32,000 nucleotides of DNA from Nitrosococcus oceani ATCC 19707 (lineage in GTDB: Bacteria > Pseudomonadota > Gammaproteobacteria > Nitrosococcales > Nitrosococcaceae). Shown in pieces: positions 390 to 16,652 of the stretch; within the stretch, counting starts at the first letter, position 1; each line of letters begins with the position of its first letter. A program made the translations under genes and the position numbers. The stretch spans positions 180,001 to 212,000 of the forward strand of contig NC_007484.1 of NCBI RefSeq assembly GCF_000012805.1. Reading direction: 5' to 3'. The notes below the pieces were generated by a model, which did no database searches, was not told the DNA's origin, and saw only the letters and a list, made by a program, of their open reading frames with translations.

Positions 390-2360
390 GTGCGGATAAT
401 GGGCGCGATAATATTCTCTTTAGGAAAATGGTTGGGTGGGTTGGTTTTCCTCATCAGTCTGCTGGGATACAGCGGGGTAGGAAGTGCCGAGGTGGCGGAA
501 GGTCGGGCGCAGACAGCGTTGCACATGCTGGACTATATTGGGGTGGACTACCCTGAGTTTGTTCAGGGTGGTCAGGCGTTGAATGCGGAAGAGTACCAGG
601 AGCAACTCGAATTTGCCCGTGAAGTCTTAGGAATTGTTGAGCAATTACCCGTAACGCTTCAAAAAGGCGGCATAGAGGAACAAGCCCATCAGCTTCTGGC
701 ATTGATTGAAGAAAAAGGTCCTGGGGACAGAGTCGCTATGGTAGCCGATCAGTTACGCTGGGATATCATTCGAGCTTACCAAATTGAGATTGCGCCCCAA
801 CAAGCGCCTGATTTAAGTGTGGCCGAGGCCCTTTACCAGGCTCAGTGCGCCACCTGCCATGGCGCTGAGGGTTATGGTGATGGTCCAGCCGCTGAAGGAA
901 TGGAACCGGAACCAACTAATTTTCACGAGCAGGCGCGCCAGGAACAACGCAGTATTTACAGCCTTTTTAGCACCATTACCCTGGGGGTGCCGGGCACGGC
1001 CATGCCTAGCTTTAAGCAGCCATTAAGCGAGCACAAGCGTTGGGCGCTGGCCTTTTATGTGAGCACCCTTATCACTACCGCAGAGGAGCAACAAACGGGG
1101 GCTGCCTTATGGCAGCAAGGAATTGGCAAGGAAGCATTTCCTGATTTACAAGCCCTGGCTAGTCAAACTCCCCAGGAGGTTGGCGCACGGTACGGGGAGG
1201 AATCCCGCCAAGTATTGGCTTATTTGCGCAGCGCGCCTGCTCTGCTGGATTCCGAAAAAGCACCGCTGGATTTGAGCTTGGAAGGTCTTGAGAAAAGTCT
1301 CAACGCTTACCGGGAAGGCCATCATGAACGGGCGCAGCAATTGGCGGTGGAGGCGTATTTGGAAGGTTTTGAACTGGTAGAGACGAGCCTTAATACGGTA
1401 GCTCCCAACCTGCGCTCCCACATCGAACAGGAGATGATGGCTTATCGTGCCCTAATCCGGAAAGGCGCGCCGGTTGAATCTCTGGAATCCCAACAAGGGA
1501 AGCTACAAGGTCTATTGAACCAGGCTCGTGAACAGCTCGATGAAGCTGAACTTTCCACCACCGCGATTGCGTTGAGCTCCCTGACCATTATTTTGCGGGA
1601 AGGGCTGGAGGCGGTTCTAATCGTCGGCGCCATTATTTCCTTTTTGATTCGATCCGGGCGGCGTGATGCCCTGATTTATGTGCATTTGGGCTGGATTCCT
1701 GCCTTGGTGCTGGGGGTAGCCACTTGGTTTGCGGCTACTTATCTTATTTCCATTAGCGGGGCGAGCCGCGAGTTAACCGAAGGAATCGCGGCCTTAATAT
1801 CAGCGGCTATATTGCTTTATGTGGGTTTTTGGCTCCATAGCAAAGCCTATGCTAAAGGCTGGCGAGCATTTCTTGCCAAGCAGGTGAGAGGAGCCTTGAA
1901 TAAGCGAACCTTGGGAGCACTGGCTTTGTTATCCTTCCTTGCGGTCTATCGGGAAGTATTCGAGACAGTGTTATTTTATCAGGCTTTGTGGACGCAAGCG
2001 GGTCCCGAAGGGCGTGGAGCAGTGCTTGGTGGTTTTGGTGCCGGGGTGGGAGTGCTCCTGCTAGTGAGCGGGCTAATTTTTTATTATAGCGTTCGCTTGC
2101 CTATTAAGCTTTTCTTCGGAGTTACTTCCGTGATATTGGCGTTACTAGCGGTGATCTTAGCCGGGAAGGGAGTCGGTGCATTGCAGGAAGCGGGCATGAT
2201 TCCGGTGGATGCGGTGGCTTTTCCTAGCATGCCTGCCCTAGGGATTTATCCGAACTGGCAGGTATTGCTTTTGCAAGGGGGAGTGTTGGTGGCCATTATA
2301 GCGGGTTTTGCTTATACGCATTTTGCTTCTCAGCGCACCCCGTCACCGGACAATGCTTAG
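390..2360 (+). CDS. Cytochrome c / FTR1 (EfeU-type) high-affinity iron permease fusion protein
   Basis: 656-aa ORF with an N-terminal hydrophobic signal-like segment. One haem-c motif CATCH (CxxCH), with a downstream GTAMP Met, lies in the soluble N-terminal part. The C-terminal ~270 aa has multiple hydrophobic spans and two RExxE permease motifs (REGLEAV, REVFETV). Confidence 0.8.
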   Translation: MRIMGAIIFSLGKWLGGLVFLISLLGYSGVGSAEVAEGRAQTALHMLDYIGVDYPEFVQGGQALNAEEYQEQLEFAREVLGIVEQLPVTLQKGGIEEQAHQLLALIEEKGPGDRVAMVADQLRWDIIRAYQIEIAPQQAPDLSVAEALYQAQCATCHGAEGYGDGPAAEGMEPEPTNFHEQARQEQRSIYSLFSTITLGVPGTAMPSFKQPLSEHKRWALAFYVSTLITTAEEQQTGAALWQQGIGKEAFPDLQALASQTPQEVGARYGEESRQVLAYLRSAPALLDSEKAPLDLSLEGLEKSLNAYREGHHERAQQLAVEAYLEGFELVETSLNTVAPNLRSHIEQEMMAYRALIRKGAPVESLESQQGKLQGLLNQAREQLDEAELSTTAIALSSLTIILREGLEAVLIVGAIISFLIRSGRRDALIYVHLGWIPALVLGVATWFAATYLISISGASRELTEGIAALISAAILLYVGFWLHSKAYAKGWRAFLAKQVRGALNKRTLGALALLSFLAVYREVFETVLFYQALWTQAGPEGRGAVLGGFGAGVGVLLLVSGLIFYYSVRLPIKLFFGVTSVILALLAVILAGKGVGALQEAGMIPVDAVAFPSMPALGIYPNWQVLLLQGGVLVAIIAGFAYTHFASQRTPSPDNA

Positions 2361-2361
2361 G

Positions 2362-2650
2362 AAGGGATGCTCGGCTTTAGCTTTAAGCGCGTATGCTGGA
2401 TTGCTATTCTACGCCTGCTCTATCGTATCGCCGCCACCCTGGCGCCGGTAGCAATGTTGGATCATGTCCTATGCGCGGCACCGGCCATAGTCTTGGATGA
2501 TGTTGCCCCAGGCGGTGGTCTCCTCGCCGTGGAGTAAATCGGGCAGCATGGTGGCATCAGAGAGAGAGCGGCCGCTGTTGTCGCCACGGCATAAAAAGAG
2601 ACTGAAATGCCAGCCTTCCCAGAAGGCTGGCCAAGTTGTTGCGCGGGATC
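2362..2650 (-). pseudogene. IS5-family (DDE) transposase internal fragment, decayed
   Basis: One minus-strand frame reads ...WEGWHFSLFLCRGDNSGRSLSDATMLPDLLHGEETTAWGN..YG..*..*..LKAKAEHPF. This matches, in order, the IS5 InsH blocks WHFG.K, SGL..S, LLHGEE, .D.GY.G and RA.VEHPF. It has two in-frame TAG stops, no start codon, no N-terminal third and no recognisable inverted repeats. Confidence 0.45.
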
Positions 2651-2973
2651 TATTCCTTATCCAAATTCATGCGTCTCTATCACTGATTAGCAACACTAAA
2701 TAACTTAGGCGATAGGTATGATATTGGTGATTGTTTGCTCCGTTTAAGAGACGGACTGCATCTTATAAGATGCGGGTTGCAAGGCAAAAGAAAAATAAAG
2801 CTGAGGTGCGTATTAGCCAAAATCGATAGGTGCCGCCAGAATCAGTAATTCTTTGATATGAAAGGTAGAAATAGGTATTGGCTAGGAACCAATTGTGTAT
2901 GATAAGGCGCAGCTTAGTCAGCCTATTTCGCGTTATGTTGTCAGGGCAAAATGCCTCGAGATAAAGGTGGATT

Positions 2974-3180
2974 ATGAAACCTAAACTCACGTCTGAGATA
3001 ACATGCCCGGCGTGTGGGCACGGGGAAGTGGAGACAATGCCAGAGGACTCTTGCCAGTATTTTTATGAATGCAAGAACTGCAAAACCCTGCTTAAACCCA
3101 AGCACGGTGATTGCTGTATATTTTGTTCTTATGGCGACACGCCGTGTCCACCCATACAACTAGATCAGTCGTGTTGTTGA
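2974..3180 (+). CDS. GDCCVxC-domain zinc-ribbon metal-binding protein (Cys form)
   Basis: 68 aa with CPACG...CKNC zinc-ribbon pairs, then GDCCIFCSYG and CPPIQ, which is the signature of the small GDCCVxC (seleno)protein family. An AAAGGTGG ribosome-binding site lies 4 nt upstream of the ATG. The ORF ends 4 nt before the merF-like gene. Confidence 0.75.
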   Translation: MKPKLTSEITCPACGHGEVETMPEDSCQYFYECKNCKTLLKPKHGDCCIFCSYGDTPCPPIQLDQSCC

Positions 3181-3184
3181 ATTT

Positions 3185-3400
3185 ATGAAGAACGGAAGCA
3201 GGTTAATAAAGATTGGTGCATTTGGCGGTGTAATTACGGCACTTTGCTGTTTCACTCCGGTTCTCGTTTGGTTGTTTGCGATTCTTGGGGTTTCAGCGTT
3301 GGTGGGTTATTTGGATTACGTGCTTTTGCCATTGCTCGCTGTGTTTCTGGTCTTGTTGTTAACCGGTTTTGTTCAGCCTCAACGTGACAAATCAACATAA
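3185..3400 (+). CDS. merF: MerF-like two-helix mercuric ion transporter, lacking the C-terminal Cys pair
   Basis: 71 aa with two hydrophobic helices. The TALCCFTPVLV...LSALVGYLDYVLLP block closely resembles MerF around its first vicinal Cys pair. The protein ends at QPQRDKST with no second CC pair. Confidence 0.7.
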   Translation: MKNGSRLIKIGAFGGVITALCCFTPVLVWLFAILGVSALVGYLDYVLLPLLAVFLVLLLTGFVQPQRDKST

Positions 3401-3465
3401 CGAGGGGCTGCAGCTGACCGGTTCGCGCTGGCGCTCCAACCGGCAGCCGAGCCCAGGCGTTAGGT
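3395..3465 (+). other. attC-like recombination site 1
   Basis: ACATAAC ... GTTAGGT ends. The arms pair: TAACG.GGGCT with AGCCC.CGTTA, and GCTGACCGGTT with AACCGGCAGC, leaving an unpaired A. The merF-like TAA stop lies inside the inverse core. Confidence 0.6.
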
Positions 3466-3534
3466 GCTTGGCACACCACTGGAAAAGGACGTGGGAGCTG
3501 AAAAAACAAGATTGAATTCTCAGAGGGGAGCCGG

Positions 3535-3948
3535 GTGACTAAAGATAGAAGCGATAATGAAGACAAGCGGACATTGGTAGAGCAGCTTGTTTCGGTTGAA
3601 AGAATCTCTTTCAATGTCACCCAGTCGGTTATCGTTACGACTGAGGACAAAATTCGTCTTTCATTGAGCTCTTATCTGCAAAATGCGAAGAGGCGATCAG
3701 ATTGGATTGCCCCTGCATCCCTTCTGATAGCAATTCTTGCAACACTTGTAACCGCCACATTTAATGATTTCATTCTAAGCGGTGCGACATGGAAAGCGGT
3801 TTTCATTATTGTTGGGTTGGGGGCGGCGATCTGGTTGATACGAGCCCTCCTGTTTTTGCGCGATAAGTCTACGATCGAAGAGTTAATAGAAGAGATAAAG
3901 ACTGGAAATAGAAACGAAGAATCTCAAAGTTCAGGAGGGTCAATTTAA
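3535..3948 (+). CDS. Hypothetical 2-TM membrane protein (137 aa)
   Basis: GTG start 5 nt after GGGGAG. The protein has a ~65-aa charged N-terminal region, two hydrophobic helices (WIAPASLLIAILATLVTATF, WKAVFIIVGLGAAIWLIRALLFL) and an acidic tail. Its stop overlaps the next ATG (TAATG). Confidence 0.6.
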   Translation: MTKDRSDNEDKRTLVEQLVSVERISFNVTQSVIVTTEDKIRLSLSSYLQNAKRRSDWIAPASLLIAILATLVTATFNDFILSGATWKAVFIIVGLGAAIWLIRALLFLRDKSTIEELIEEIKTGNRNEESQSSGGSI

Positions 3949-5312
3949 TGAAACTCCAAGGACGACTCGATGTGCTACAGAAGAAAGCTAAGGCAGCATT
4001 AGCAATTCGACACTACAAAGAGGCAGAATCCCTATTACAAGAGTTATTAGAAACCCAAGTCCAGCACTTTGGTGATGCAGACACGCAGATCGCCACCACA
4101 CTGAACAATCTCGCAGCTCTTTATGAAGCCCAAGGGCGGTATGCTCAGGCCGAGGAGCTTTACCATCGCTCGCTTGCTATCCGCGAACAGTTGCTAGGCC
4201 CGGACCACCCCGAGGTTGCCACCACACTGAACAATCTCGCAGCTCTTTATGAAGCCCAAGGGCGGTATGCTCAGGCCGAGGAGCTTTACCATCGCTCGCT
4301 TGCTATCCGCGAACAGTTGCTAGGCCCGGACCACCCCGAGGTTGCCACCACACTGAACAATCTCGCAGCTCTTTATGAAGCCCAAGGGCGGTATGCTCAG
4401 GCCGAGGAGCTTTACCATCGCTCGCTTGCTATCCGCGAACAGTTGCTAGGCCCGGACCACCCCGAGGTTGCCACCACACTGAACAATCTCGCGGCGCTCT
4501 ATAAGAAACAAGGGAGGTACGCTCAGGCCGAGGAGCTTTACCATCGCTCGCTTGCTATCCGCGAACAGTTGCTAGGCCCGGACCACCCCGAGGTTGCCAC
4601 CACACTGAACAATCTCGCAGCTCTTTATGAAGCCCAAGGGCGGTATGCTCAGGCCGAGGAGCTTTACCATCGCTCGCTTGCTATCCGCGAACAGTTGCTA
4701 GGCCCGGACCACCCCGAGGTTGCCACCACACTGAACAATCTCGCAGCTCTTTATGAAGCCCAAGGGCGGTATGCTCAGGCCGAGGAGCTTTACCATCGCT
4801 CGCTTGCTATCCGCGAACAGTTGCTAGGCCCGGACCACCCCGAGGTTGCCACCACACTGAACAATCTCGCGGCGCTCTATAAGAAACAAGGGAGGTACGC
4901 TCAGGCCGAGGAGCTTTACCATCGCTCGCTTGCTATCCGCGAACAGTTGCTAGGCCCGGACCACCCCGAGGTTGCCACCACACTGAACAATCTCGCAGCT
5001 CTTTATGAAGCCCAAGGGCGGTATGCTCAGGCCGAGGAGCTTTACCATCGCTCGCTTGCTATCCGCGAACAGTTGCTAGGCCCGGACCACCCCGAGGTTG
5101 CAATCATGCTAAATAATCTTGCTGGCTTGTACAGGGCGACGGGATTGGGTGAGAAAGCAGAAAGTTTGTATGACAGAAGCTTGGCGGTAATGGAAAAAAT
5201 ATTCGGGCCAAGACATCCAAATACTGCAATCGTACGAGCCAACCGCGATGCTTATAAACATACGGCACCTAACAAGGCAAATTCAGCCGACGCCAAAAAG
5301 CGGCGCGGCTGA
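3948..5312 (+). CDS. Tetratricopeptide repeat protein (42-residue KLC-type TPR_10/TPR_12 units)
   Basis: 454 aa made of a 48-aa N-terminus, eight near-identical 42-aa units (ATTLNNLAALYEAQGRYAQAEELYHRSLAIREQLLGPDHPEV), one divergent unit and a basic tail. No NTPase or other enzymatic domain is evident. Confidence 0.9.
   Translation: MKLQGRLDVLQKKAKAALAIRHYKEAESLLQELLETQVQHFGDADTQIATTLNNLAALYEAQGRYAQAEELYHRSLAIREQLLGPDHPEVATTLNNLAALYEAQGRYAQAEELYHRSLAIREQLLGPDHPEVATTLNNLAALYEAQGRYAQAEELYHRSLAIREQLLGPDHPEVATTLNNLAALYKKQGRYAQAEELYHRSLAIREQLLGPDHPEVATTLNNLAALYEAQGRYAQAEELYHRSLAIREQLLGPDHPEVATTLNNLAALYEAQGRYAQAEELYHRSLAIREQLLGPDHPEVATTLNNLAALYKKQGRYAQAEELYHRSLAIREQLLGPDHPEVATTLNNLAALYEAQGRYAQAEELYHRSLAIREQLLGPDHPEVAIMLNNLAGLYRATGLGEKAESLYDRSLAVMEKIFGPRHPNTAIVRANRDAYKHTAPNKANSADAKKRRG
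4092..5099 (+). repeat. 8 x 126-bp in-frame tandem repeat with a 378-bp higher-order duplication
   Basis: Unit starts are 4092, 4218, 4344, 4470, 4596, 4722, 4848 and 4974. Six units are identical by eye. Units 4 and 7 share the same 10 substitutions inside a 33-bp patch (EA to KK plus synonymous changes). Segment 4218-4595 equals 4596-4973. Confidence 0.97.
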
Positions 5313-5327
5313 TTTGCGGCGATAGAC
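5267..5327 (+). other. attC-like recombination site 2 (short 61-bp type, core mutated)
   Basis: ACCTAAC ... TCAGCCGACGCC / GGCGCGGCTGA ... GATAGAC. The arms pair with an unpaired A. The architecture resembles, from memory, the ~60-bp aadA-type attC. The core reads GAT instead of GTT. Confidence 0.5.
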
Positions 5328-5374
5328 GGCATCAAGCGAGTCCTGGTCCTAGGGCAGAGTTCTCGAATTGAGCA

Positions 5375-5414
5375 TTGACATACCAAATAAAGTATACATA
5401 CTTTTTATGGTATG
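5375..5414 (+). promoter_or_regulatory. Candidate cassette-internal promoter and operator for the toxin-antitoxin pair
   Basis: TTGACA (5375-5380), a 16-nt spacer, then CATACT (5397-5402). The imperfect inverted repeat CATACCAAATAAAG (5379-5392) / CTTTTTATGGTATG (5401-5414) matches at 12 of 14 positions and overlaps the -35 box and the ATG. Confidence 0.3.
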
Positions 5415-5693
5415 TGGAAAATCCTTGAGCATAGAAGGATCTGGCAACAGCTCGACCGACTCCCTCTCGATATTTTGAAGCGATATGAGAAGTGGAAAGA
5501 TATCGTCCGTCTCTCAGGCCCGAATGGGCTGAGGCAGATTAAGGGATTCAACGACGAAGCGTTACGGGGAGAGTGGCGTGGGCACCGCTCCTCGAGGCTC
5601 AGCCGCCAGTATCGAGTGATATATCGGATTGAGCAGGATAAGGTGGTTGTAGAAGTAGTTAGGGTGACCGCTCACGATTATCGGAGGAAGTGA
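5412..5693 (+). CDS. RelE/ParE-superfamily type II toxin (toxin-first, HigB-like arrangement)
   Basis: 93 aa. The C-terminal block LRGEWRGHRSSRLSRQYRVIYRIEQDKVVVEVVRVTAHDY is typical of RelE/ParE-fold toxins. The gene ends 1 nt before the HTH gene. Confidence 0.75.
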   Translation: MWKILEHRRIWQQLDRLPLDILKRYEKWKDIVRLSGPNGLRQIKGFNDEALRGEWRGHRSSRLSRQYRVIYRIEQDKVVVEVVRVTAHDYRRK

Positions 5694-5694
5694 A

Positions 5695-5955
5695 ATGAGC
5701 GAGTATCGAAAAGCCGGGAAGAGGGTCGATGTATCGATTGGTGAATCCGTCCGCATTCTCCGGGAGTTGCAGGAACTCAGCCAAAATGAGCTGTCGGAGA
5801 TGACTGGGATTCCTCAGTCTACAATCTCGGCGATTGAGCGGGATCGGATTCGCTTGGGCGTGGAAAGGGCCAAAGTACTCGCACGTGCGCTGCGGTGCCA
5901 TCCAGCAGTTTTGGTTTTTCCTGGCTGGGATGTAGAGCACGAGTCGGCCGCCTAA
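5695..5955 (+). CDS. XRE-family helix-turn-helix antitoxin
   Basis: 86 aa. The LSQNELSEMTGIPQSTISAIERDR segment is a Cro/C1-type HTH. It sits directly downstream of the toxin. Confidence 0.8.
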   Translation: MSEYRKAGKRVDVSIGESVRILRELQELSQNELSEMTGIPQSTISAIERDRIRLGVERAKVLARALRCHPAVLVFPGWDVEHESAA

Positions 5956-6022
5956 CAAGGCGCTCCACCGAACGACAATTCCGCTACGCTCTATTGCCGT
6001 TCGGTAAGCTTAGTCGTTAGAT
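5950..6022 (+). other. attC-like recombination site 3
   Basis: GCCTAAC ... GTTAGAT ends. ACCGAACGACAAT pairs with ATTGCCGTTCGGT around the loop TCCGCTACGCTCT. The antitoxin TAA stop lies inside the inverse core. Confidence 0.65.
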
Positions 6023-6327
6023 TCTAAAGGAGAACATGGAGTGAGTCTGGGGGCCGTTTTCGATGATCCGCCGAGACTGATTGCGTCAGTAAGGTATAAA
6101 ACGGAGCAGTCAAGATATTTTTTTGCACTGTTCGGGTTGACAGCGATTGCGATTGGCTTGGTATAGATATCAATTGAGACGAAATGTTAACGATTATTAG
6201 ATTCGAGCGCGATCTCCGGAGAGTGGTTGGCATGAGATACATACCATTTATGCTGTATTTGCTTAGCGGTCCCCTATTTGCAGATACACCAAGCTGGCTT
6301 TGCATAGGGGAGCACACTGCTCAAGTG

Positions 6328-6540
6328 ATGCCAGCATAGGCTTTGAAGAGCTGCGCTCATTGCTGAAGAGCCTGGGCTTTGAAGAACGTATTCGTGGCAG
6401 CCATCATATCTATTCGCCGTGTCGATATAGAAGAGCGCTTGAATCTTCAGCGTGAAGGCGCCAAAGCCAAGCCCTATCAAGTTCATCAAGTACGTGCTGT
6501 TATTCTGAAATATCGGCTAGGAGTCGATGACGATGCATAA
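6328..6540 (+). pseudogene. hicA: hicA-family toxin, frameshifted
   Basis: Frame 0 reads GFEELRSLLKSLGFEERIRGSHHIY. The continuation (I)RRVDIEERLNLQREGAKAKPYQVHQVRAVILKYRLGVDDDA* is in the +1 frame from about 6412. The ATG at 6328 hits TAG after 3 codons, so there is at least one frameshift. The 3' end overlaps the hicB start. Confidence 0.6.
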
Positions 6541-6745
6541 ATACGAAGTGATTATTTATTGGAGTCAAGAAGATAAAACGTTTATAGCTGGGGTGCCGGA
6601 GCTGCCTGGTTGCATGGTACATGGTCCTACCCAAATGGCGGCATTAGAGAGTGTGAATCAAGCAATAGAGTTATGGTTGGATACCGCACGGGAATTTAAT
6701 GATCCCATTCCTGAGCCGAAGGGGCGTCGATTACTGTATGCGTAG
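6527..6745 (+). CDS. hicB: HicB-family antitoxin (UPF0150 / RNase H-like fold)
   Basis: 72 aa. YEVIIYWSQEDKTFIAGVPELPGCMVHGPTQMAALESVNQAIELWL is a typical HicB N-domain. An alternative start is the ATG at 6533. Confidence 0.8.
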   Translation: MTMHKYEVIIYWSQEDKTFIAGVPELPGCMVHGPTQMAALESVNQAIELWLDTAREFNDPIPEPKGRRLLYA

Positions 6746-6747
6746 GG

Positions 6748-6817
6748 CGCTAACCATTTGCTCAAGCGGACTGCTCCCTTCGGTCGCATCCGCTTAGCTC
6801 GGCCATTATAGTTACTA
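6748..6817 (+). other. attC-like recombination site 4 (degenerate, terminal)
   Basis: CGCTAAC ... AAGCGGA / TCCGCTT ... GTTACTA. Both core motifs have one mismatch. The 3' end overlaps the apt stop codon. Confidence 0.4.
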
Positions 6818-7330
6818 GTAGTGGACTAGGGAGTGGACAGTATAATCGGAAAGTCTCTCCCGCCCGTGCAGAAAGTCCAGTTCGATGACGAAGGCGCAAG
6901 CCGCTACCGTGGCCCCCAGGCTTTCTACCAGTTCGCAGCTTGCTTTGGCGGTGCCGCCGGTGGCGAGCAGATCATCCACTAGCAGGACGTTATCTCCAGG
7001 ACCGAGAGAATCGGTATGAGCCTCCAGGCTGGCAGAGCCATATTCCAGCTGATAGGAGATGCTTCGGACTTCATAGGGAAGCTTGCCGGATTTGCGCAAG
7101 GGGATAAAACCTACCCCCAACTCCCAGGCGACCAGCGCGCCAAAGATAAAACCCCGCGCCTCTATCCCACCAACCGCCGTGATATCCTGCTCCAGGAAGG
7201 GATGGAGGAGTTGGTGCACCGCTAGCCGTAAGGTGGCGGGGTCTCCGACTAAGGGGGTGATATCCTTGAAGAGGACGCCCGGCTTGGGAAAATCGGGTAT
7301 ATCGCGGATTTTAGTTTTGAGCCGCTCCAT
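6815..7330 (-). CDS. apt: Adenine phosphoribosyltransferase
   Basis: MERLKTKIRDIPDFPKPGVLFKDITPL matches the Apt N-terminus, and a VLLVDDLLATGGT PRPP-binding loop is present. The 224-aa track ORF is trimmed to Met54. Confidence 0.9.
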   Translation of the reverse strand: MERLKTKIRDIPDFPKPGVLFKDITPLVGDPATLRLAVHQLLHPFLEQDITAVGGIEARGFIFGALVAWELGVGFIPLRKSGKLPYEVRSISYQLEYGSASLEAHTDSLGPGDNVLLVDDLLATGGTAKASCELVESLGATVAACAFVIELDFLHGRERLSDYTVHSLVHY

Positions 7331-7375
7331 CGATGCTTTACCTAAGTACACTAGAATTTGAGGGAGGCACTTTAT

Positions 7376-7660
7376 ATGATTAGGGTTAAACAGACAAATG
7401 AAACGGACCCCCTGGCTTTTATGGTGACCATCACAGAAAGTTCGGGCGAGACGAGCCATCGGGTTACCCTCTCGCAAGGAACCTATCAAAAACTAACTGG
7501 CGGTAAGGTCAGCGCCGTGGACTGCGTTCAGGCCGCCTTTATGTTTTTACTAGAACGGGAACCGAAAGAGGCTATTCTCGGGCAGTTCGATATTACTGTC
7601 ATTTCCCATTATTTTCCGGATTTTGAGCGTGAATTACCTCGTTATCTGGAGCAGCTATAA
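7376..7660 (+). CDS. Hypothetical protein (94 aa)
   Basis: The ORF has a GGAGG about 10 nt upstream of the ATG at 7376. I recognise no motif. Confidence 0.5.
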   Translation: MIRVKQTNETDPLAFMVTITESSGETSHRVTLSQGTYQKLTGGKVSAVDCVQAAFMFLLEREPKEAILGQFDITVISHYFPDFERELPRYLEQL

Positions 7661-7673
7661 GGCAGCTATAAGT

Positions 7674-8318
7674 ATGATGGGTAGCCGCGCACCCTTTATC
7701 TTTAGTTATAGGGTAGGGTTATTGGCTTTAATGCTTGGCGGATGTACATTGTTTGGCGGCGGGGGGGATTCGCCAGGAGGTTATACCCTGGAAGTAGTGC
7801 GGGTGCTAGAGCAGCCCTCGCCCCAGGCCAGGGAACGAATACTAGAGGTGGTTCCCTTTCGGATTAGTCCTCGTTATCGCAGCCGGCTTTGGCTCTACCA
7901 GGAGGCAGGCTCTTGGCATCGGGTGGAGGAGGAACAGGCTTTCCTCATCCCTCCACAAGTTTTGGTGACCGAGCAGGCAAGCACCTATTTCAGACGTTCG
8001 GGGTTATTCGGCGCAGTGGTGGAAGGGGAGAGTCGATTACAAGTAACCCATCTTTTGGAAGGTGCAGTGACTGCGCTGTACGGTGATTTTAGCGATCCCA
8101 TGGCCCCACGGGCAGTGATGGAAATTCAATTCTTTTTAATTGATCCCCGGCTTGATCCTCCTAAGACTCTGCTGAAATCAGGCTTCCGAGTCGAAGCGGA
8201 AATTTTGGCGGCAACCCCCCAAGCACTTATCCAAGGATGGAATAATGGCTTAGAAAGTATATTAGAGAACTTCGAAAACGACTTGCGACGGTTATTCGAT
8301 CATTCCTCACGGGGATAG
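7674..8318 (+). CDS. Lipoprotein, probably ABC-transport auxiliary / PqiC-like (DUF330-type)
   Basis: Signal peptide with lipobox LMLGG-C. The size (~214 aa) and sequence pattern resemble the auxiliary lipoprotein family. The family call is tentative. Confidence 0.55.
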   Translation: MMGSRAPFIFSYRVGLLALMLGGCTLFGGGGDSPGGYTLEVVRVLEQPSPQARERILEVVPFRISPRYRSRLWLYQEAGSWHRVEEEQAFLIPPQVLVTEQASTYFRRSGLFGAVVEGESRLQVTHLLEGAVTALYGDFSDPMAPRAVMEIQFFLIDPRLDPPKTLLKSGFRVEAEILAATPQALIQGWNNGLESILENFENDLRRLFDHSSRG

Positions 8319-8606
8319 TGAAGAATGTTGCGCTGGCGTTAGTGTTTTCGGCACCGCCATGGCGCAATATGGTAAGATTCTCTCCGAAACAGTTTTAAAA
8401 CTGACCGTTAGCGCTGACAGGAAATTGAGGGCGTTTTGCGATGGATAATCGTATAACAATCCTACTTTTTTAGTGGTTGTTACACGCTTCGTTTTATCTT
8501 GGCACAAACCTACTATATATTTAAAACCGCTTTTTAAGAATTAGCGTTTTTCCACCTTATTACCTACCAAAGCGCGATTGAATTCCACGGAGACCGAAAA
8601 CCCATA

Positions 8607-11147
8607 ATGGATGAGATAGCCCAGGAAGTTTTCCCGGTTAATATCGAAGATGAAATGAAGCACTCCTACCTCGATTACGCCATGAGCGTTATTGTGGGTA
8701 GAGCATTGCCTGATGCTCGTGATGGCTTAAAACCCGTGCATCGACGGGTATTATATGCTATGCGGGAATTGGGTAATGATTGGAATAAGCCTTATAAAAA
8801 ATCAGCCCGTGTGGTAGGCGATGTCATCGGGAAATATCATCCCCACGGGGATGCGGCGGTTTATGATGCCATCGTGCGGATGGCCCAGCTTTTTTCCATG
8901 CGCTGCCCTCTAATCGATGGACAGGGAAATTTTGGCTCTATTGACGGTGACTCTCCTGCGGCCATGCGTTATACCGAGGTGCGTATGGCTAAAATTGCCC
9001 ACGAGCTGTTAGCCGATCTCAATAAGGAAACCGTCGATTTTGTTCCTAATTACGACGAGTCCGAGCATGAGCCGGCGGTTCTTCCTACCCGTATACCTAA
9101 TTTATTGGCAAATGGTTCTTCGGGAATCGCTGTGGGTATGGCGACCAATATTCCGCCCCATAACCTCGGTGAGTTATTGAGTGCCTGCATTGCGCTTATC
9201 GATGATCCCGCTTTGAGTATTGCTGGGCTAATGAGCCATATTCCGGGGCCTGATTTTCCCACGGCGGGGATTGTGAACGGTGCCCGTGGTATCCAGGAAG
9301 CTTATTTGACTGGCCGGGGGCGAATCTTCATGCGAGCCCGGACCCATGTAGAAACCGATGAGGGTAGCGGCAAGCAAAGCATCATCGTCACCGAATTGCC
9401 CTATATGGTCAATAAGGCCCGTTTGCTGGAGAAAATCGGCAATTTGGTCAAGGAAAAGAAGATCGTGGGCATTGTAGGGCTGCGGGACGAATCAGACAAG
9501 GATGGCATGCGCATGGTGGTGGAGTTGCGCCGGAGCGAAATGCCGGAAGTGGTGCTGAATCAACTTTATCTTCATACCCAATTACAGAGTGTCTTTGGCA
9601 TTAATATGGTGGCTTTGGTCGATGGCCAGCCCCAGTTGCTTAATCTGAAGTTAGCCCTGGAAGCCTTTTTGCGGCACCGCCAGGAAGTAGTGACCCGGCG
9701 GACCATGTTTGAGTTACGCAAGGCGAGGGAGCGGGCCCATGTGCTGGAAGGGTTGGCCATTGCCTTGGCTAATATCGATTCGATTATTGCTCTTATCAAG
9801 GCGTCTTCAAGCCCGGCCGAGGCCCGGGATGGACTGATAGCGCGTTTCTGGCCGCCGGGCGTTGTGATCGATATGTTGCAGCGGGCAGGCGCCGAATCCT
9901 CCCAGCCAGAGAAATTAGAAACTGCTTATGGGTTGCAACAAGACGGTTATCGTCTATCTCCTGCCCAAGCCCAAGCCATTCTTGAGATGCGCCTCCATCG
10001 TCTAACGGGCCTAGAGCAGAGTAAAATTATTGACGAATATGAGCAGGTGATCATTTTTATTTTGGGGTTACTAGAAATTCTAGCTAATCCGGAACGACTC
10101 ATGGCGGTCATCCGGGAAGAGTTCATGGAGATGCGGGAGCAATATAGTACTCCACGCCGCACTGAGATTCAGGATAATCATGTGGATCTGCGCTTGGAAG
10201 ATCTCATTCAAGAAGAAAATGTGGTGGTGACTCTGTCCCATAGTGGTTATGCTAAATCCCAAACTTTAGATACCTACCGTTCTCAGAAGCGAGGGGGCAA
10301 GGGTAAGTCGGCGACGGCCATGAAAGAAGAGGACTTTATCGACAAGCTCTTTATCGCCAATACCCATGATACCCTGCTATGCTTTTCGAGTCGGGGCAAA
10401 GTGTATTGGAAAAAAGTCTATGAGTTGCCCCAGGGATCACGGGTAGCTCGGGGTAAGCCCTTCGTCAATCTCCTGCCTTTGGAGGAAGGAGAGCGGATTA
10501 ATACGGTATTATCTATCCGTGAATTCGAAAAAGACAAATATATTTTTATGGTAACTGCCTCGGGGGTAGTCAAGAAAACTTCCCTGGCTGATTTTTCCCG
10601 GCCCCGTTCCAGTGGCATTATTGCCCTAGATTTGAGGGAGGGAGATCAATTGGTAGGAGCAGACCTTACCGATGGTGTGCAGGAAATCATGTTGTTTAGC
10701 TCGGGAGGTAAAGTGATCCGCTTTTCGGAGCGGGATGTGCGGCCTGTTGGGCGTACGGCCCGTGGTGTTAAAGGTATGGAATTGCCCTCGGAACATCGAG
10801 TGATTGCCCTTATTATCGCGGCGAGCGGTACCATTTTAACGGCGACCGAATTGGGTTATGGTAAGCGGACAGCCATTGCCGAGTACCGTCTCCAAGGCCG
10901 AGGAGGGAGAGGAATCATCTCTATTCGGACGACCCCGCGGAATGGTGAAGTAGTTGGGGCGGTGCAAGTAGAAAAGGAGGATGAAGTCGTGCTTATTAGT
11001 GATGGGGGCACGCTTATTCGTACTCCAGTGGATAATATTTCTCTTATGGGGCGCAATACGCAAGGCGTCAAACTCATTAACCTCCAGGAAGGGGAGCGGT
11101 TGGTGGGTATTGAGCGCATCGTTGAAGATGGAGAGGCTGGAATATAA
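8607..11147 (+). CDS. gyrA: DNA gyrase subunit A
   Basis: 846 aa with the [21 protein letters not shown], the active-site AAMRYTE Tyr, and C-terminal beta-pinwheel repeats. Confidence 0.98.
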
Positions 11148-11188
11148 CGAGACCAGCGTGCTAGGAATATTAAAGAGGATATAAGACT

Positions 11189-12271
11189 ATGACTCGTGTT
11201 TACAATTTCAGCGCTGGACCGGCTGTGTTGCCAGAAGACGTCATTATCCAGGCCCGCGACGAAATGCTTGATTGGCGTGGCACCGGAATGTCAGTGATGG
11301 AAATGACTCATCGAGGCAAGCAGTTTATGGCCATTGCCGAGCAGGCCGAAGCCGATTTCCGGGAGCTATTGGCTATCCCAGAGAATTACAAAGTTTTGTT
11401 CCTTCAAGGGGGGGCTACCAGCCAGTTCGCGATGGTACCCATGAATTTACTACAGGGCAAGAAACAGGCAGATTATATTTGTACCGGGCATTGGTCTAAA
11501 AAGGCCATTGCCGAAGGGCGCCGGTTTTGCGAGATTAATTTAGCAGCCAGCTCCGAGGATACGGGCTTTCAGCATGTTCCTCCTCATCAGGATTGGAAGC
11601 TAGATCCAGAAGCTGCTTATGTTCACTACACACCTAATGAAACCATTGCCGGAGTAGAATTTCATTGGATTCCTGACTCAGGAGAAGTGCCTCTGGTGGC
11701 CGATATGTCCTCTACTCTTTTATCACGTCCGTTGGATGTCAGTCGCTTTGGAGTCATTTATGCGGGGGCGCAAAAGAATATCGGCTGCGCGGGTCTGACC
11801 GTGGTCATAGTGCGGAATGATTTGATAGGACGGCCCCAGGCCGGGACTCCCGCCATGTTTGATTACCAAATCCATGCTGATCATAACTCCATGTATAACA
11901 CGCCGCCCACGTACGCTTGGTATGTGGCCGGACTGGTCTTTAGCTGGCTAAAGCGGAAGGGGGGACTTACCGCAATAGCAAAGATAAACCAAGCTAAAGC
12001 GAACACCCTTTACAGCTTTATTGACAGTAACGACTTTTACTACAATCCGGTAGAGCGGGCTTTCCGCTCTCGCATGAACGTGCCTTTTATTTTGTCCGAG
12101 CAGCAGCTTGATGAAATTTTTCTGGAGCAGGCAAAAAAAGCGGGGTTGACTAATCTGAAGGGGCACCGTTCAGTGGGAGGAATGCGGGCAAGCATTTACA
12201 ATGCTATGTCCCAGGAAGGGGTTGAGACTCTGGTGGAGTTTATGAAAGAGTTTGAACGTACCCGGGCATGA
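11189..12271 (+). CDS. serC: 3-phosphoserine / phosphohydroxythreonine aminotransferase
   Basis: 360 aa. The N-terminus YNFSAGPAVLP, the GAQKNIG PLP-lysine region and the length are typical of SerC. Confidence 0.95.
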   Translation: MTRVYNFSAGPAVLPEDVIIQARDEMLDWRGTGMSVMEMTHRGKQFMAIAEQAEADFRELLAIPENYKVLFLQGGATSQFAMVPMNLLQGKKQADYICTGHWSKKAIAEGRRFCEINLAASSEDTGFQHVPPHQDWKLDPEAAYVHYTPNETIAGVEFHWIPDSGEVPLVADMSSTLLSRPLDVSRFGVIYAGAQKNIGCAGLTVVIVRNDLIGRPQAGTPAMFDYQIHADHNSMYNTPPTYAWYVAGLVFSWLKRKGGLTAIAKINQAKANTLYSFIDSNDFYYNPVERAFRSRMNVPFILSEQQLDEIFLEQAKKAGLTNLKGHRSVGGMRASIYNAMSQEGVETLVEFMKEFERTRA

Positions 12272-12362
12272 AATTAATGTTTATAAGCTAAGCTCACTAT
12301 CCATTTTTGCTTAAGAAGGATGGGGAAGAGCCGCATTATTGTCTTATTGATTAAACCAGGGG

Positions 12363-13541
12363 GTGACGGATAGCTGCATGTATAAGATACTCACATTAAA
12401 CAATATTTCTATCGTAGGGTTGGATCGCTTGCCTCGGGATAAGTATGAGGTAGCCTCCGAGATTCAGCATCCAGATGCAATTCTCGTGCGATCACATAAT
12501 ATGCATGAGATGGCTATTCCACCCACACTCAAGGCGGTGGGGCGCGCTGGCGCTGGAGTCAACAATATTCCGGTAGCACGCTTGAGCGAAGGGGGGGTGG
12601 CCGTGTTTAACGCTCCCGGTGCCAATGCCAATGCAGTCAAGGAAGCTGTGCTAGCAGGTCTGTTGGTATCTGCCCGTAATATTTGTCAAGCTTGGGAGGC
12701 TGCCCGCACTTTGACTGGCACCGATAAGGAGATTCACCGGGAAGTTGAGGCTCAGAAGAAGCGTTTTGTAGGCGTTGAGCTGCCTGGGCGGACCTTGGGG
12801 GTTGTTGGCCTCGGATCTATTGGCGTTCAGGTGGCTAATGCCGCCTTAGCGCTTGGTATGCGGGTGGTAGGGTATGATCCTCAGATCACGGTACAGCGTG
12901 CCTGGGCCCTCTCTGCACAGGTTGAGCAGGCGACTAACCTGGACCATTTATTGTCCCAGGCTGATTTTTTATCCCTGCATGTTCCATTGCTGGAGGCTAC
13001 CCGAGGTTTGATTAACCGGGAACGGTTAAGAAATATAAAGCCAGAGGCAAGACTTCTCAATTTTGCGCGGGCGGAAATTGTTGACGAGGACGCTGTGGTG
13101 GATGCTATAGAAGAAGGTAAGATCGCGGCTTATATTTGCGACTTTCCTAGCAATCGCTTAAAAGGGCATCCCCAAGTGATTGCCTTGCCCCACCTTGGCG
13201 CATCTACTTATGAGGCGGAAGAAAATTGCGCAGTGATGGTGGTGGAGCAGATTCGCGAGTTTCTGGAAAATGGTAATGTGCAAAACTCGGTGAATTTTCC
13301 AGATGCCGTGCTGCCTCGTACTGACAGCTGGCGGCTTGCGATTGCCAATGCCAATGTCCCTACCATGGTCGCTCAAATTTCTACTCACTTGGCTGAAGCG
13401 GGCTTGAATATTATCGATATGCTGAATAAGTCCCAGAATGATTTAGCTTACACGCTCGTGGATGTGGATCGTCCTATTCCTAAGTATCTAGTGGATGGAA
13501 TCAGCGCTGTTCAGGGAATGTTATCGGTACGGGCCTTGTGA
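12363..13541 (+). CDS. D-3-phosphoglycerate dehydrogenase-like 2-hydroxyacid dehydrogenase with C-terminal ACT-like domain
   Basis: Rossmann motif GVVGLGSIGVQVA, a catalytic region with HLGAST, and a C-terminal ~70-aa ACT-like segment. An alternative start is the ATG at 12378. Confidence 0.8.
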   Translation: MTDSCMYKILTLNNISIVGLDRLPRDKYEVASEIQHPDAILVRSHNMHEMAIPPTLKAVGRAGAGVNNIPVARLSEGGVAVFNAPGANANAVKEAVLAGLLVSARNICQAWEAARTLTGTDKEIHREVEAQKKRFVGVELPGRTLGVVGLGSIGVQVANAALALGMRVVGYDPQITVQRAWALSAQVEQATNLDHLLSQADFLSLHVPLLEATRGLINRERLRNIKPEARLLNFARAEIVDEDAVVDAIEEGKIAAYICDFPSNRLKGHPQVIALPHLGASTYEAEENCAVMVVEQIREFLENGNVQNSVNFPDAVLPRTDSWRLAIANANVPTMVAQISTHLAEAGLNIIDMLNKSQNDLAYTLVDVDRPIPKYLVDGISAVQGMLSVRAL

Positions 13542-15795: not shown

Positions 15796-16652
15796 TCCGG
15801 CGTCTCTGCATCCTTGGAGTAGGGTTGATTGGGGGCTCTTTGGCGCTGGCTCTAAAGCAGGCTAAAGGAGTAGGCGAAGTTGTCGGTTATGAAAGAGACC
15901 CCATTGCTAGGGACAAGGCCCTTTCTTTGGGAATCATCGACCGTGCTGAGCTTGATCTTGCGGAAGCGCTTCGGGGAGCTGACGTGGTGGTTTTGGCCGT
16001 GCCGCTTGGAGCTATGGAAGAACTATTGCAGGCAATGGCGCCTAGTTTGAAACCAGGGATGGTGGTGACCGATGTGGGGAGCGTCAAGGGAAGTGTGGTT
16101 GCCTCTGCACGGGCTAAGTTGGGGGAGTACATTGTAGATTTTGTACCGGGCCACCCTATCGCTGGGACAGAAAGAAATGGCCCGGAAGCCGCTTTTGCTG
16201 ATTTATTTTGCCTCCATAAGGTACTTCTTACACCTTTGCCTGAAAGTCGCGCCGTGGCCGTGCGGATGGTAAGAATGATGTGGCATCAGGTGGGAGCTGA
16301 GGTAATAGAAACCAGTATTTCTCATCATGATCGAATGTTGGCGGGAACCAGCCATCTTCCCCATATATTGGCGTATACTTTAATAGATATGCTGGCTAAG
16401 TTAGGGGAAACGCAAGAGGCGTTGCAGTTCGCTGCAGGAGGATTCCGGGATTTCTCTCGTATCGCCTCGAGCGATCCTAGCGTGTGGCGGGACATCTGTC
16501 TTGCTAATAAGGAACCCTTGCTGGCGCTTCTGGAGCGATTCAGGACCGAACTTCACGGTATAGGCGAGGCTATTCATCGCGGTGATGGAGCAAAACTTGC
16601 GGAAATTTTCGCTCGGGCCAAGGCCGTTCGGGATACACATTATAAGCGTTAA
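15792..16652 (+). CDS. tyrA: Prephenate (or arogenate) dehydrogenase
   Basis: GTG start overlaps the hisC stop (GTGA). GVGLIGGSLA Rossmann motif, HPIAGTE catalytic motif, 286 aa. Confidence 0.9.
   Translation: MIRRLCILGVGLIGGSLALALKQAKGVGEVVGYERDPIARDKALSLGIIDRAELDLAEALRGADVVVLAVPLGAMEELLQAMAPSLKPGMVVTDVGSVKGSVVASARAKLGEYIVDFVPGHPIAGTERNGPEAAFADLFCLHKVLLTPLPESRAVAVRMVRMMWHQVGAEVIETSISHHDRMLAGTSHLPHILAYTLIDMLAKLGETQEALQFAAGGFRDFSRIASSDPSVWRDICLANKEPLLALLERFRTELHGIGEAIHRGDGAKLAEIFARAKAVRDTHYKR

Follow-up and report, generated by a model that had tools for sequence, protein, structure and literature searches.

Positions 2932-6811 of the 32-kb stretch of the Nitrosococcus oceani ATCC 19707 chromosome analysed here (the window, positions 1-32000) very probably constitute a chromosomal group of attC sites that has no integron integrase (a CALIN), made up of four co-oriented integron gene cassettes that each end in an attC site. 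The array lies between the gene for an FTR1 iron permease on its left and the convergent apt gene on its right. Under the published definition, a CALIN comprises two or more attC sites, each separated by under 4 kb from its neighbour, and has no integron integrase gene adjoining the cluster (Cury et al, 2016; PMC4889954). The N. oceani array falls within this definition because its four attC sites follow one another at distances of 1.8, 0.6 and 0.7 kb and no intI gene was found nearby. CALINs are common, with 2,961 among 21,105 complete genomes, and the size and cargo of the N. oceani array are typical of them. Our literature search found no paper that links N. oceani to integrons, and a comparison paper on five strains does not mention the array.

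Four palindromes between FTR1 and apt are attC sites

A preliminary description of the window, made from the sequence alone, had pointed to four co-oriented imperfect palindromes, each at the end of a group of open reading frames (ORFs). Sequence and ORF reading agree with it on the places of the palindromes, their cores and their relation to the neighbouring stop codons. The sites are listed here with their inverse core (R''), their R' core and their score with the covariance model described below:

3395-3465, + strand: attC site 1; R'' ACATAAC, R' GTTAGGT; intact; 34.5 bits, E 2.5e-6
5267-5327, + strand: attC site 2; R'' ACCTAAC, R' GATAGAC, with GAT in place of the conserved GTT; 25.3 bits, E 4e-4
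5950-6022, + strand: attC site 3; R'' GCCTAAC, R' GTTAGAT; intact; 30.9 bits, E 1.8e-5
6748-6811, + strand: attC site 4; R'' CGCTAAC, degenerate R'; 22.8 bits, E 1.6e-3

In sites 1 and 3, the TAA stop codons of the MerF-like protein (3398-3400) and of an antitoxin (5953-5955), respectively, lie within R''. The ORF of a TPR protein runs into site 2 and terminates inside it, at 5312, and site 4 starts at 6748, 3 nt past the hicB stop.

The covariance model (R1) was trained on a foreign set of 13 bona fide attC sites taken from plasmid integrons, namely those of the aadA1, aadA5, aacA4, VIM-4, cmlA5, OXA-1, arr-3, dfrA1, dfrA46 and ere cassettes, of two hypothetical cassettes and of a GNAT cassette. 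They were drawn from class 1 arrays reached via IntI1 and from an eight-cassette array on a Providencia plasmid (integrase TIGR02249, 402 bits), and none of them had come from a BLAST search with a site of the window. The training alignment used the bottom strands and specified the R-box and L-box pairs with two bulges; the variable centres were masked by N after MAFFT on full-length attC sites had misaligned the 3' arms of aadA1 and cmlA5. Run against the 32-kb window with filters off, the model returned four significant matches, all on the minus strand and with scores of 22.8-34.5 bits, the next best match reaching 7.1 bits (E 9). The matches coincide with the four palindromes and share one orientation, which bears out their earlier designation as attC sites. 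Genuine attC sites outside the training set score 24.7-46.6 bits, and 602 kb of unrelated proteobacterial control loci, searched with default filters, gave no match at E ≤ 10.

Simpler searches recovered less. A scan of the window at the Rfam gathering thresholds reported tRNA only, and a strict scan for RYYYAAC/GTTRRRY core pairs recovered site 1 alone, the others being missed because real attC sites tolerate mismatches in the outer cores. Relaxing the core pair yielded 124 matches on the + strand alone and was uninformative. Judged by these cores, sites 1 and 3 match fully or with one mismatch, and sites 2 and 4, in a correction of the preliminary description, are degenerate and match only in part: site 2 has a good R'', whereas its R' deviates, and the R' of site 4 is degenerate. 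The right end of site 4 also had to be revised. The preliminary description extended it to 6817 by means of an R' GTTACTA (6811-6817) overlapping the apt stop codon (6815-6817), a choice that requires a spacer of 13 nt and lacks conservation in N. watsonii. The covariance model places R' at ATTATAG (6805-6811), at the canonical 7-nt spacing and clear of the apt stop, and site 4 most likely ends at 6811.

The imperfect inner palindrome (L''/L') that characterises attC sites, and the bottom-strand hairpin it forms, with extrahelical bases on the R''/L'' arm and an unpaired R-L spacer, are evident from both the folds and the pairing analysis. In single-stranded DNA folds, sites 1-3 exceed dinucleotide shuffles in stability (z -2.5 to -4.2): the bottom-strand hairpin of site 1 has two bulges in its 3' arm (z -3.3), site 2 reaches z -3.0 to -4.2, and site 3 forms a 13-bp stem on the bottom strand (z -3.65). 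The fold of site 4, at z -1.3 to -1.8, is marginal. In sites 1, 2 and 4, the bottom strand, which is the minus strand of the window, has single-base bulges on its 3' arm, where the extrahelical bases of attC sites occur. In an alignment of six distinct N. oceani sites, which was fitted to the covariance model and is hence biased towards attC structure, 90.6% of the cells pair in the attC structure, as against 23-44% with slid partners, and seven pairs are changed on both sides.

Three of the sites have relatives in known integrons

As an independent line of support, the sites were also compared by BLAST with 72,556 plasmids. Site 1 matches the attC that follows a DinB cassette in a Providencia plasmid integron (E 3e-5), with the integrase (TIGR02249, 402 bits) nearby. 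Site 2 matched 509 plasmid records; the two listed matches that were inspected coincide with the attC of a class 1 cassette, qacF/qacL, and this attC hardly differs from those of aadB and aadA1. For site 3, the matches are an attC on plasmid pLNU-11, interrupted by a group II intron (E 3e-12), and a site on a Geoalkalibacter plasmid (E 1e-9), and its stem differs from those of its relatives by compensatory A-T to G-C changes. For site 4, no BLAST relative was found among these plasmids.

The intron insertion in pLNU-11 (4156-6000 of the compared locus) has a counterpart in the aadB attC of pGZAF1_VIM (~7100-7324), likewise a group II intron. In both attC sites, the intron end TAATCGGGTAGCC directly follows the CTAA of the inverse core.

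No integrase adjoins the array

The absence of intI, already noted in the preliminary description, holds over a wider span. A hidden Markov model (HMM) of three IntI proteins gave no match below E 1, in six-frame translation, either in the window or in the corresponding extended 20-kb loci of two further N. oceani assemblies and of N. watsonii, a search that spanned ~6.5 kb to the left to 25 kb to the right of the array; two positive controls scored 1e-187. Pfam searches in six frames of 2340-2975, which includes the 570-bp left spacer, detected neither a transposase nor an integrase domain, and a blastn search with 2361-2975 against plasmids returned nothing. A promoter scan found no promoter-like site upstream of cassette 1, and no recognisable attI was found at the left junction. 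A complete integron has intI, attI and the Pc promoter beside its first cassette, and the N. oceani array does not have this arrangement. Two features were nevertheless recognised in the region to the left of cassette 1:

2367-2580, - strand: possible degenerate IS5-family transposase fragment; two in-frame stops; present in both N. oceani lineages, not in N. watsonii
2932-2938, + strand: left-junction core GTTATGT (in the other N. oceani lineage, GTTAGGT); boundary of the first cassette, where the variable region begins

One frame of the fragment gave tblastn matches at E 0.01-0.4 and 32-36% identity, 45 records being matched in all. Nine of the ten matches listed lie in IS5-family transposase genes and the tenth in a region without an annotated feature. 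The IS5 transposase remnant of the preliminary description is thus plausible from these matches, the low significance of the alignments and the negative Pfam result leaving it weakly supported. The left-junction core could represent the R box of an attI-like or an attG-like site.

Cassette content differs between Nitrosococcus lineages

The preliminary description had singled out the FTR1-apt interval for comparison with related genomes, and cassette-level variation was found both in a divergent N. oceani lineage and in N. watsonii. The N. oceani lineages are 98.3-98.6% identical overall, and four of the five compared strains share an average nucleotide identity (ANI) of 99.98-99.99%. Strain AFC27 carries the same array, with a TPR gene (12019-13005 of its locus) that is three 126-bp units shorter and encodes 328 aa rather than 454 aa. 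The assembly GCA_000740735.1 has flanks 98.5-99.4% identical to those of the window and, judged by ANI, would belong to the divergent AFC132 lineage; it is homologous over 1-2928 and 5289-9000 and different in between. There, cassettes 1 and 2 are replaced by ~4.1 kb that encode three unknown proteins, a DUF433/PIN pair plus DUF5677, and AbiJ. These strain-specific genes are arranged in units, two of which end in attC sites scoring 31.6 and 30.6 bits.

In N. watsonii C-113, homology to the window extends through FTR1 up to 2370 and resumes at 6327, comprising hicA, hicB, site 4 and apt, and five different genes occupy the interval between FTR1 and the hicAB end. The variable region starts 10 bp past the FTR1 stop and is co-oriented with FTR1. 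Further afield, FTR1 of N. wardiae adjoins a siderophore cluster, not apt, and a relative in JGI metagenome 3300056388 (apt 88% identical) has a type I restriction-modification system beside apt in place of the cassettes. Judging from these sequences, the apt flank is a variable spot in this lineage. Within the array, the FTR1-proximal cassettes vary and the distal hicAB cassette is conserved between N. oceani and N. watsonii, a polarity to be expected of an array growing at one end.

The array is sedentary and partly decayed. Site 2 reads GAT rather than GTT in both N. oceani lineages. A GAT R' lies directly upstream of a toxin-antitoxin (TA) cassette twice independently, in N. oceani (5321-5327, before the RelE/HTH pair) and in N. 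watsonii (~11089-11095 of its locus, before hicAB); it could be either a disabling mutation or the G|WT scar of an insertion into a genomic site. The equivalent of site 2 in GCA_000740735.1 (11995-12065 of its locus) is a hybrid attC, in which the 5' half of a different attC, similar to the GNAT type, and the 3' half of site 2 are joined at the common 15-nt sequence GACGCCAAAAAGCGG. This hybrid no longer folds (z +0.6 and -1.2) and is not matched by the covariance model. It is a fusion of two attC sites made by means other than an integrase and resembles a microhomology deletion.

Cassette cargo and flanking genes

The four cassettes carry the following genes:

2933-3459, + strand: cassette 1; GDCCVxC-domain protein (2974-3180; NF041374, 102 bits) and MerF-like membrane protein (3185-3400; NF033565, 79 bits)
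3460-5321, + strand: cassette 2; membrane protein of 137 aa with unknown function (3535-3948) and 454-aa TPR protein (3948-5312; Pfam TPR_12 and related)
5322-6016, + strand: cassette 3; type II TA module with a RelE/ParE-like toxin (5412-5693; TIGR02385, 36.9 bits) and an antitoxin (5695-5955; Pfam HTH_3)
6017-6805, + strand: cassette 4; 300 bp of unknown origin (6023-6326), hicA pseudogene (6327-6540; Pfam HicA_toxin, weak) and hicB (6527-6745; Pfam HicB_lk_antitox)

Cassette 1 is a horizontally acquired integron cassette. Its coding DNA is 81-84% identical to genes of Marinobacter and Oceanimonas, and a GDCCVxC gene is also a cassette of a complete integron in Oceanimonas pelagia (84% DNA identity), both of which mark it as foreign. 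The closest relatives of the GDCCVxC protein are found in Marinobacter, Oceanimonas, Zobellella and Halomonas (81-88% aa identity). In O. pelagia, where an integron integrase scoring 402 bits with TIGR02249 adjoins the array, the gene occurs without merF and starts 22 nt past GTTAAAC, the core of the attC before it. The Marinobacter GDCCVxC-MerF pair lies within long co-oriented arrays of small genes, with a different attC behind the common ACATAAC.

The O. pelagia integron, which is chromosomal (3078-12158 of the compared locus), adjoins the his operon, and among the products of its cassettes are an Mrr-like nuclease and a Hachiman-like pair of HamA plus helicase.

The TPR gene of cassette 2 is composed of near-identical 126-bp (42-aa) tandem units; several draft assemblies break within this repeat. 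In cassette 3, the stretch TTGACA-16-CATACT (5375-5402) resembles a promoter and shares bases with an 18-nt palindrome (5378-5415); together they form a putative promoter and operator of the cassette's own. In cassette 4, the first ~16 codons of hicA are replaced by the ~300-bp stretch behind site 3, and the gene has a 1-nt insertion near 6411; in N. watsonii, hicA is intact at 86 aa. The array is flanked by two core genes:

399-2360, + strand: cytochrome c/FTR1 iron permease gene; left flank, outside the array; Pfam PF00034, PF13442, PF03239; protein 94% identical to that of N. watsonii
6815-7330, - strand: apt, adenine phosphoribosyltransferase; right flank, convergent with the array; Pfam PF00156

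Several N. oceani assemblies have an identical apt protein, and that of N. watsonii is 99% identical to it.

Mechanism, origin and alternative explanations

Integron integrases recombine the folded attC bottom strand at the G|TT of the R' core. In N. oceani, each cassette would have been captured as a circular element by an integron integrase recombining the attC bottom strand, here the minus strand of the window, with an FTR1-proximal site, such that new cassettes would enter on the left and old ones remain on the right. An integrase supplied in trans could use sites 1 and 3, with their canonical cores, and so excise cassette 1, or cassettes 2 and 3 as a block. To judge by their cores, sites 2 (GAT) and 4 (degenerate R') are probably inactive, and the TA cassettes would therefore be fixed. 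Because Pc is absent in cis, expression is likely limited to cassettes with a promoter of their own, as predicted for the RelE/HTH pair, or to read-through from FTR1.

Several points weigh against this explanation. The covariance model is small (n=13) and its E-values are rough, and sites 2 and 4, both without the conserved GTT, score at its low end. In N. watsonii, the model recognises the terminal site alone (23.1 bits), another site scoring a weak 10 bits. At the left junction, homology between the window and GCA_000740735.1 ends at 2928, 3 nt before the core, and the three bases upstream of the core G differ between the two lineages (CGC|GTTATGT in the window, 2921-2940; TAT|GTTAGGT in GCA_000740735.1, ~16195-16215 of its locus). 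A clean G|TT crossover does not predict this difference. The right breakpoint between these two genomes falls within the site 2 loop rather than at R', and at least some of the strain differences are therefore not integrase events.

It is very improbable, in our view, that the palindromes are terminators, repetitive extragenic palindromic (REP)-type repeats or chance hairpins, and the interval an ordinary variable island exchanged by homologous recombination. A terminator, too, would stand behind an ORF group, as each site does, many shuffles fold just as well as site 4, and the block could have been replaced as a whole by means of the homology in its flanks (FTR1 to the left, hicB/apt to the right). 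We rejected intrinsic terminators, however, since none of the sites has a T-run and a terminator scan of 2300-7000 called none at the four palindromes, its sole hit being at 2599-2616 on the minus strand. A dispersed REP-type family was rejected as well, in line with the preliminary description: the four sites differ in sequence, and there are no more model matches in the window, the 20-kb homologous loci or the 602 kb of controls, the test within the N. oceani genome covering the 32-kb window plus flanks. The conserved RYYYAAC and GTTRRRY cores, the spacing and the bulges match attC, the model matches are specific, and the BLAST relatives of three of the sites lie inside real integrons.

The remaining alternatives accept the attC sites and concern the integrase. 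That the array is not truly integrase-less, and that an integron integrase elsewhere in the N. oceani genome (a split or a second integron) still services the cassettes, appears unlikely to us. It would account for the difference in cassette content between such closely similar lineages and for the intact proximal attC sites in both, and about half of CALINs reside in replicons that encode IntI (Cury et al, 2016; PMC4889954). Yet no such integrase was found within the window or the extended loci, the five-strain comparison mentions phage-type integrases and no integron, and the strain difference is partly a non-integrase fusion of two attC sites. Rather unlikely, in our view, is that the array never had an integrase of its own and that its cassettes were inserted at attG (consensus 5'-GWT-3') downstream of FTR1 by an integrase that was encoded elsewhere or only transient, the GAT triplets being scars of attC x attG recombination. 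Integrase-mediated insertion at genomic sites of GWT consensus has been reported and proposed as the origin of small CALINs (Loot et al; preprint 10.1101/2022.09.11.507474). Such insertion would agree with the absence of a detectable intI pseudogene from the window and extended loci and of recognisable attI-like features upstream, with the start of the N. watsonii variable region so close behind FTR1 and in its orientation, and with the two independent G|AT junctions. Against it, the IS5-like fragment of N. oceani sits exactly where intI and attI would be expected, as IS-mediated deletion would leave it, four to five stacked cassettes with a variable proximal and a conserved distal end are the product of attI-driven growth, and GAT can be explained as a T-to-A mutation in a decaying site. 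The IS5-like fragment and the polarity of the array fit loss of intI and attI, and we tend to regard this origin as more likely than insertion at a secondary site.

A more specific scenario, which we put forward as speculation and think improbable, is that no resident integrase took part in assembling the array or takes part in a remodelling that still goes on at its FTR1-proximal end. A transient integrase would bring cassettes in through attC x attG recombination at G|WT, the G|AT upstream of the TA cassettes would be scars, and the TA cassettes with their crippled sites would have been fixed anchors, holding the array in its place since before N. oceani and N. watsonii split.

Significance and relation to known systems

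N. oceani, an ammonia oxidiser, occurs worldwide and is nearly clonal, and the array counts among the few loci at which gene content varies from one of its lineages to another. Through it, cassettes from marine bacteria of the Marinobacter/Oceanimonas type reach a chemolithoautotroph. The locus also offers a natural series of attC decay, from intact sites through a GTT-to-GAT site and a degenerate terminal site to a fused hybrid, and displays a polarity of variable proximal and fixed distal cassettes without an integrase in cis. Integron biology thereby gains an example, not a new principle.

With class 1 mobile integrons, the array shares attC sequences: the aadA1/qacF attC and site 2 have the arms AGCCGACGCC...GCGGCGCGGCT and an unpaired A in common, and the cmlA5 attC and site 1 have GCTGCAGC(C/T)GACC and CAGGCGTTAGG in common. 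Unlike these integrons, it is chromosomal, belongs to an environmental nitrifier and lacks resistance genes, intI1 and the 5'- and 3'-conserved segments. Cassettes inserted at attG, as in single attC sites lacking integron-integrases (SALINs) and small CALINs (10.1101/2022.09.11.507474), resemble the array in having no integron platform around them and in lying downstream of a host gene whose orientation they share, and its junction triplets GTT and GAT fit GWT. It differs from them in its several stacked cassettes with polarity and in the IS fragment on the side where the integrase would be expected.

The sedentary chromosomal integrons of marine gammaproteobacteria, such as those of O. pelagia and Marinobacter, also have much in common with the array. 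The GDCCVxC cassette, at 84% DNA identity, is of the same kind, TA cassettes come with their own promoter, and the chromosomal place is inherited vertically, being common to N. oceani and N. watsonii. In sedentary chromosomal integrons, attC bottom strands are located on the leading-strand template. The + strand of the window shows positive GC skew in each 4-kb bin and carries nearly all genes, so it is probably the leading strand, and the bottom strands of the N. oceani attC sites would therefore be on the leading-strand template too. Where such integrons have intI, attI and Pc, the N. oceani array has none of these, and its four cassettes carry heterogeneous attC sites rather than one homogeneous family.

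The likeness is closest to CALINs as defined by Cury et al (2016; PMC4889954). As in these, no intI or recognisable intI pseudogene was found nearby, an IS fragment adjoins the cluster, and the array is small, with a cargo mostly of unknown function and co-oriented attC sites that each stand at the 3' end of the cassette ORFs, well under 4 kb apart. It departs from them in nothing essential, its peculiarities being that two of its four sites have lost GTT and that one strain has a fused, non-folding hybrid attC.

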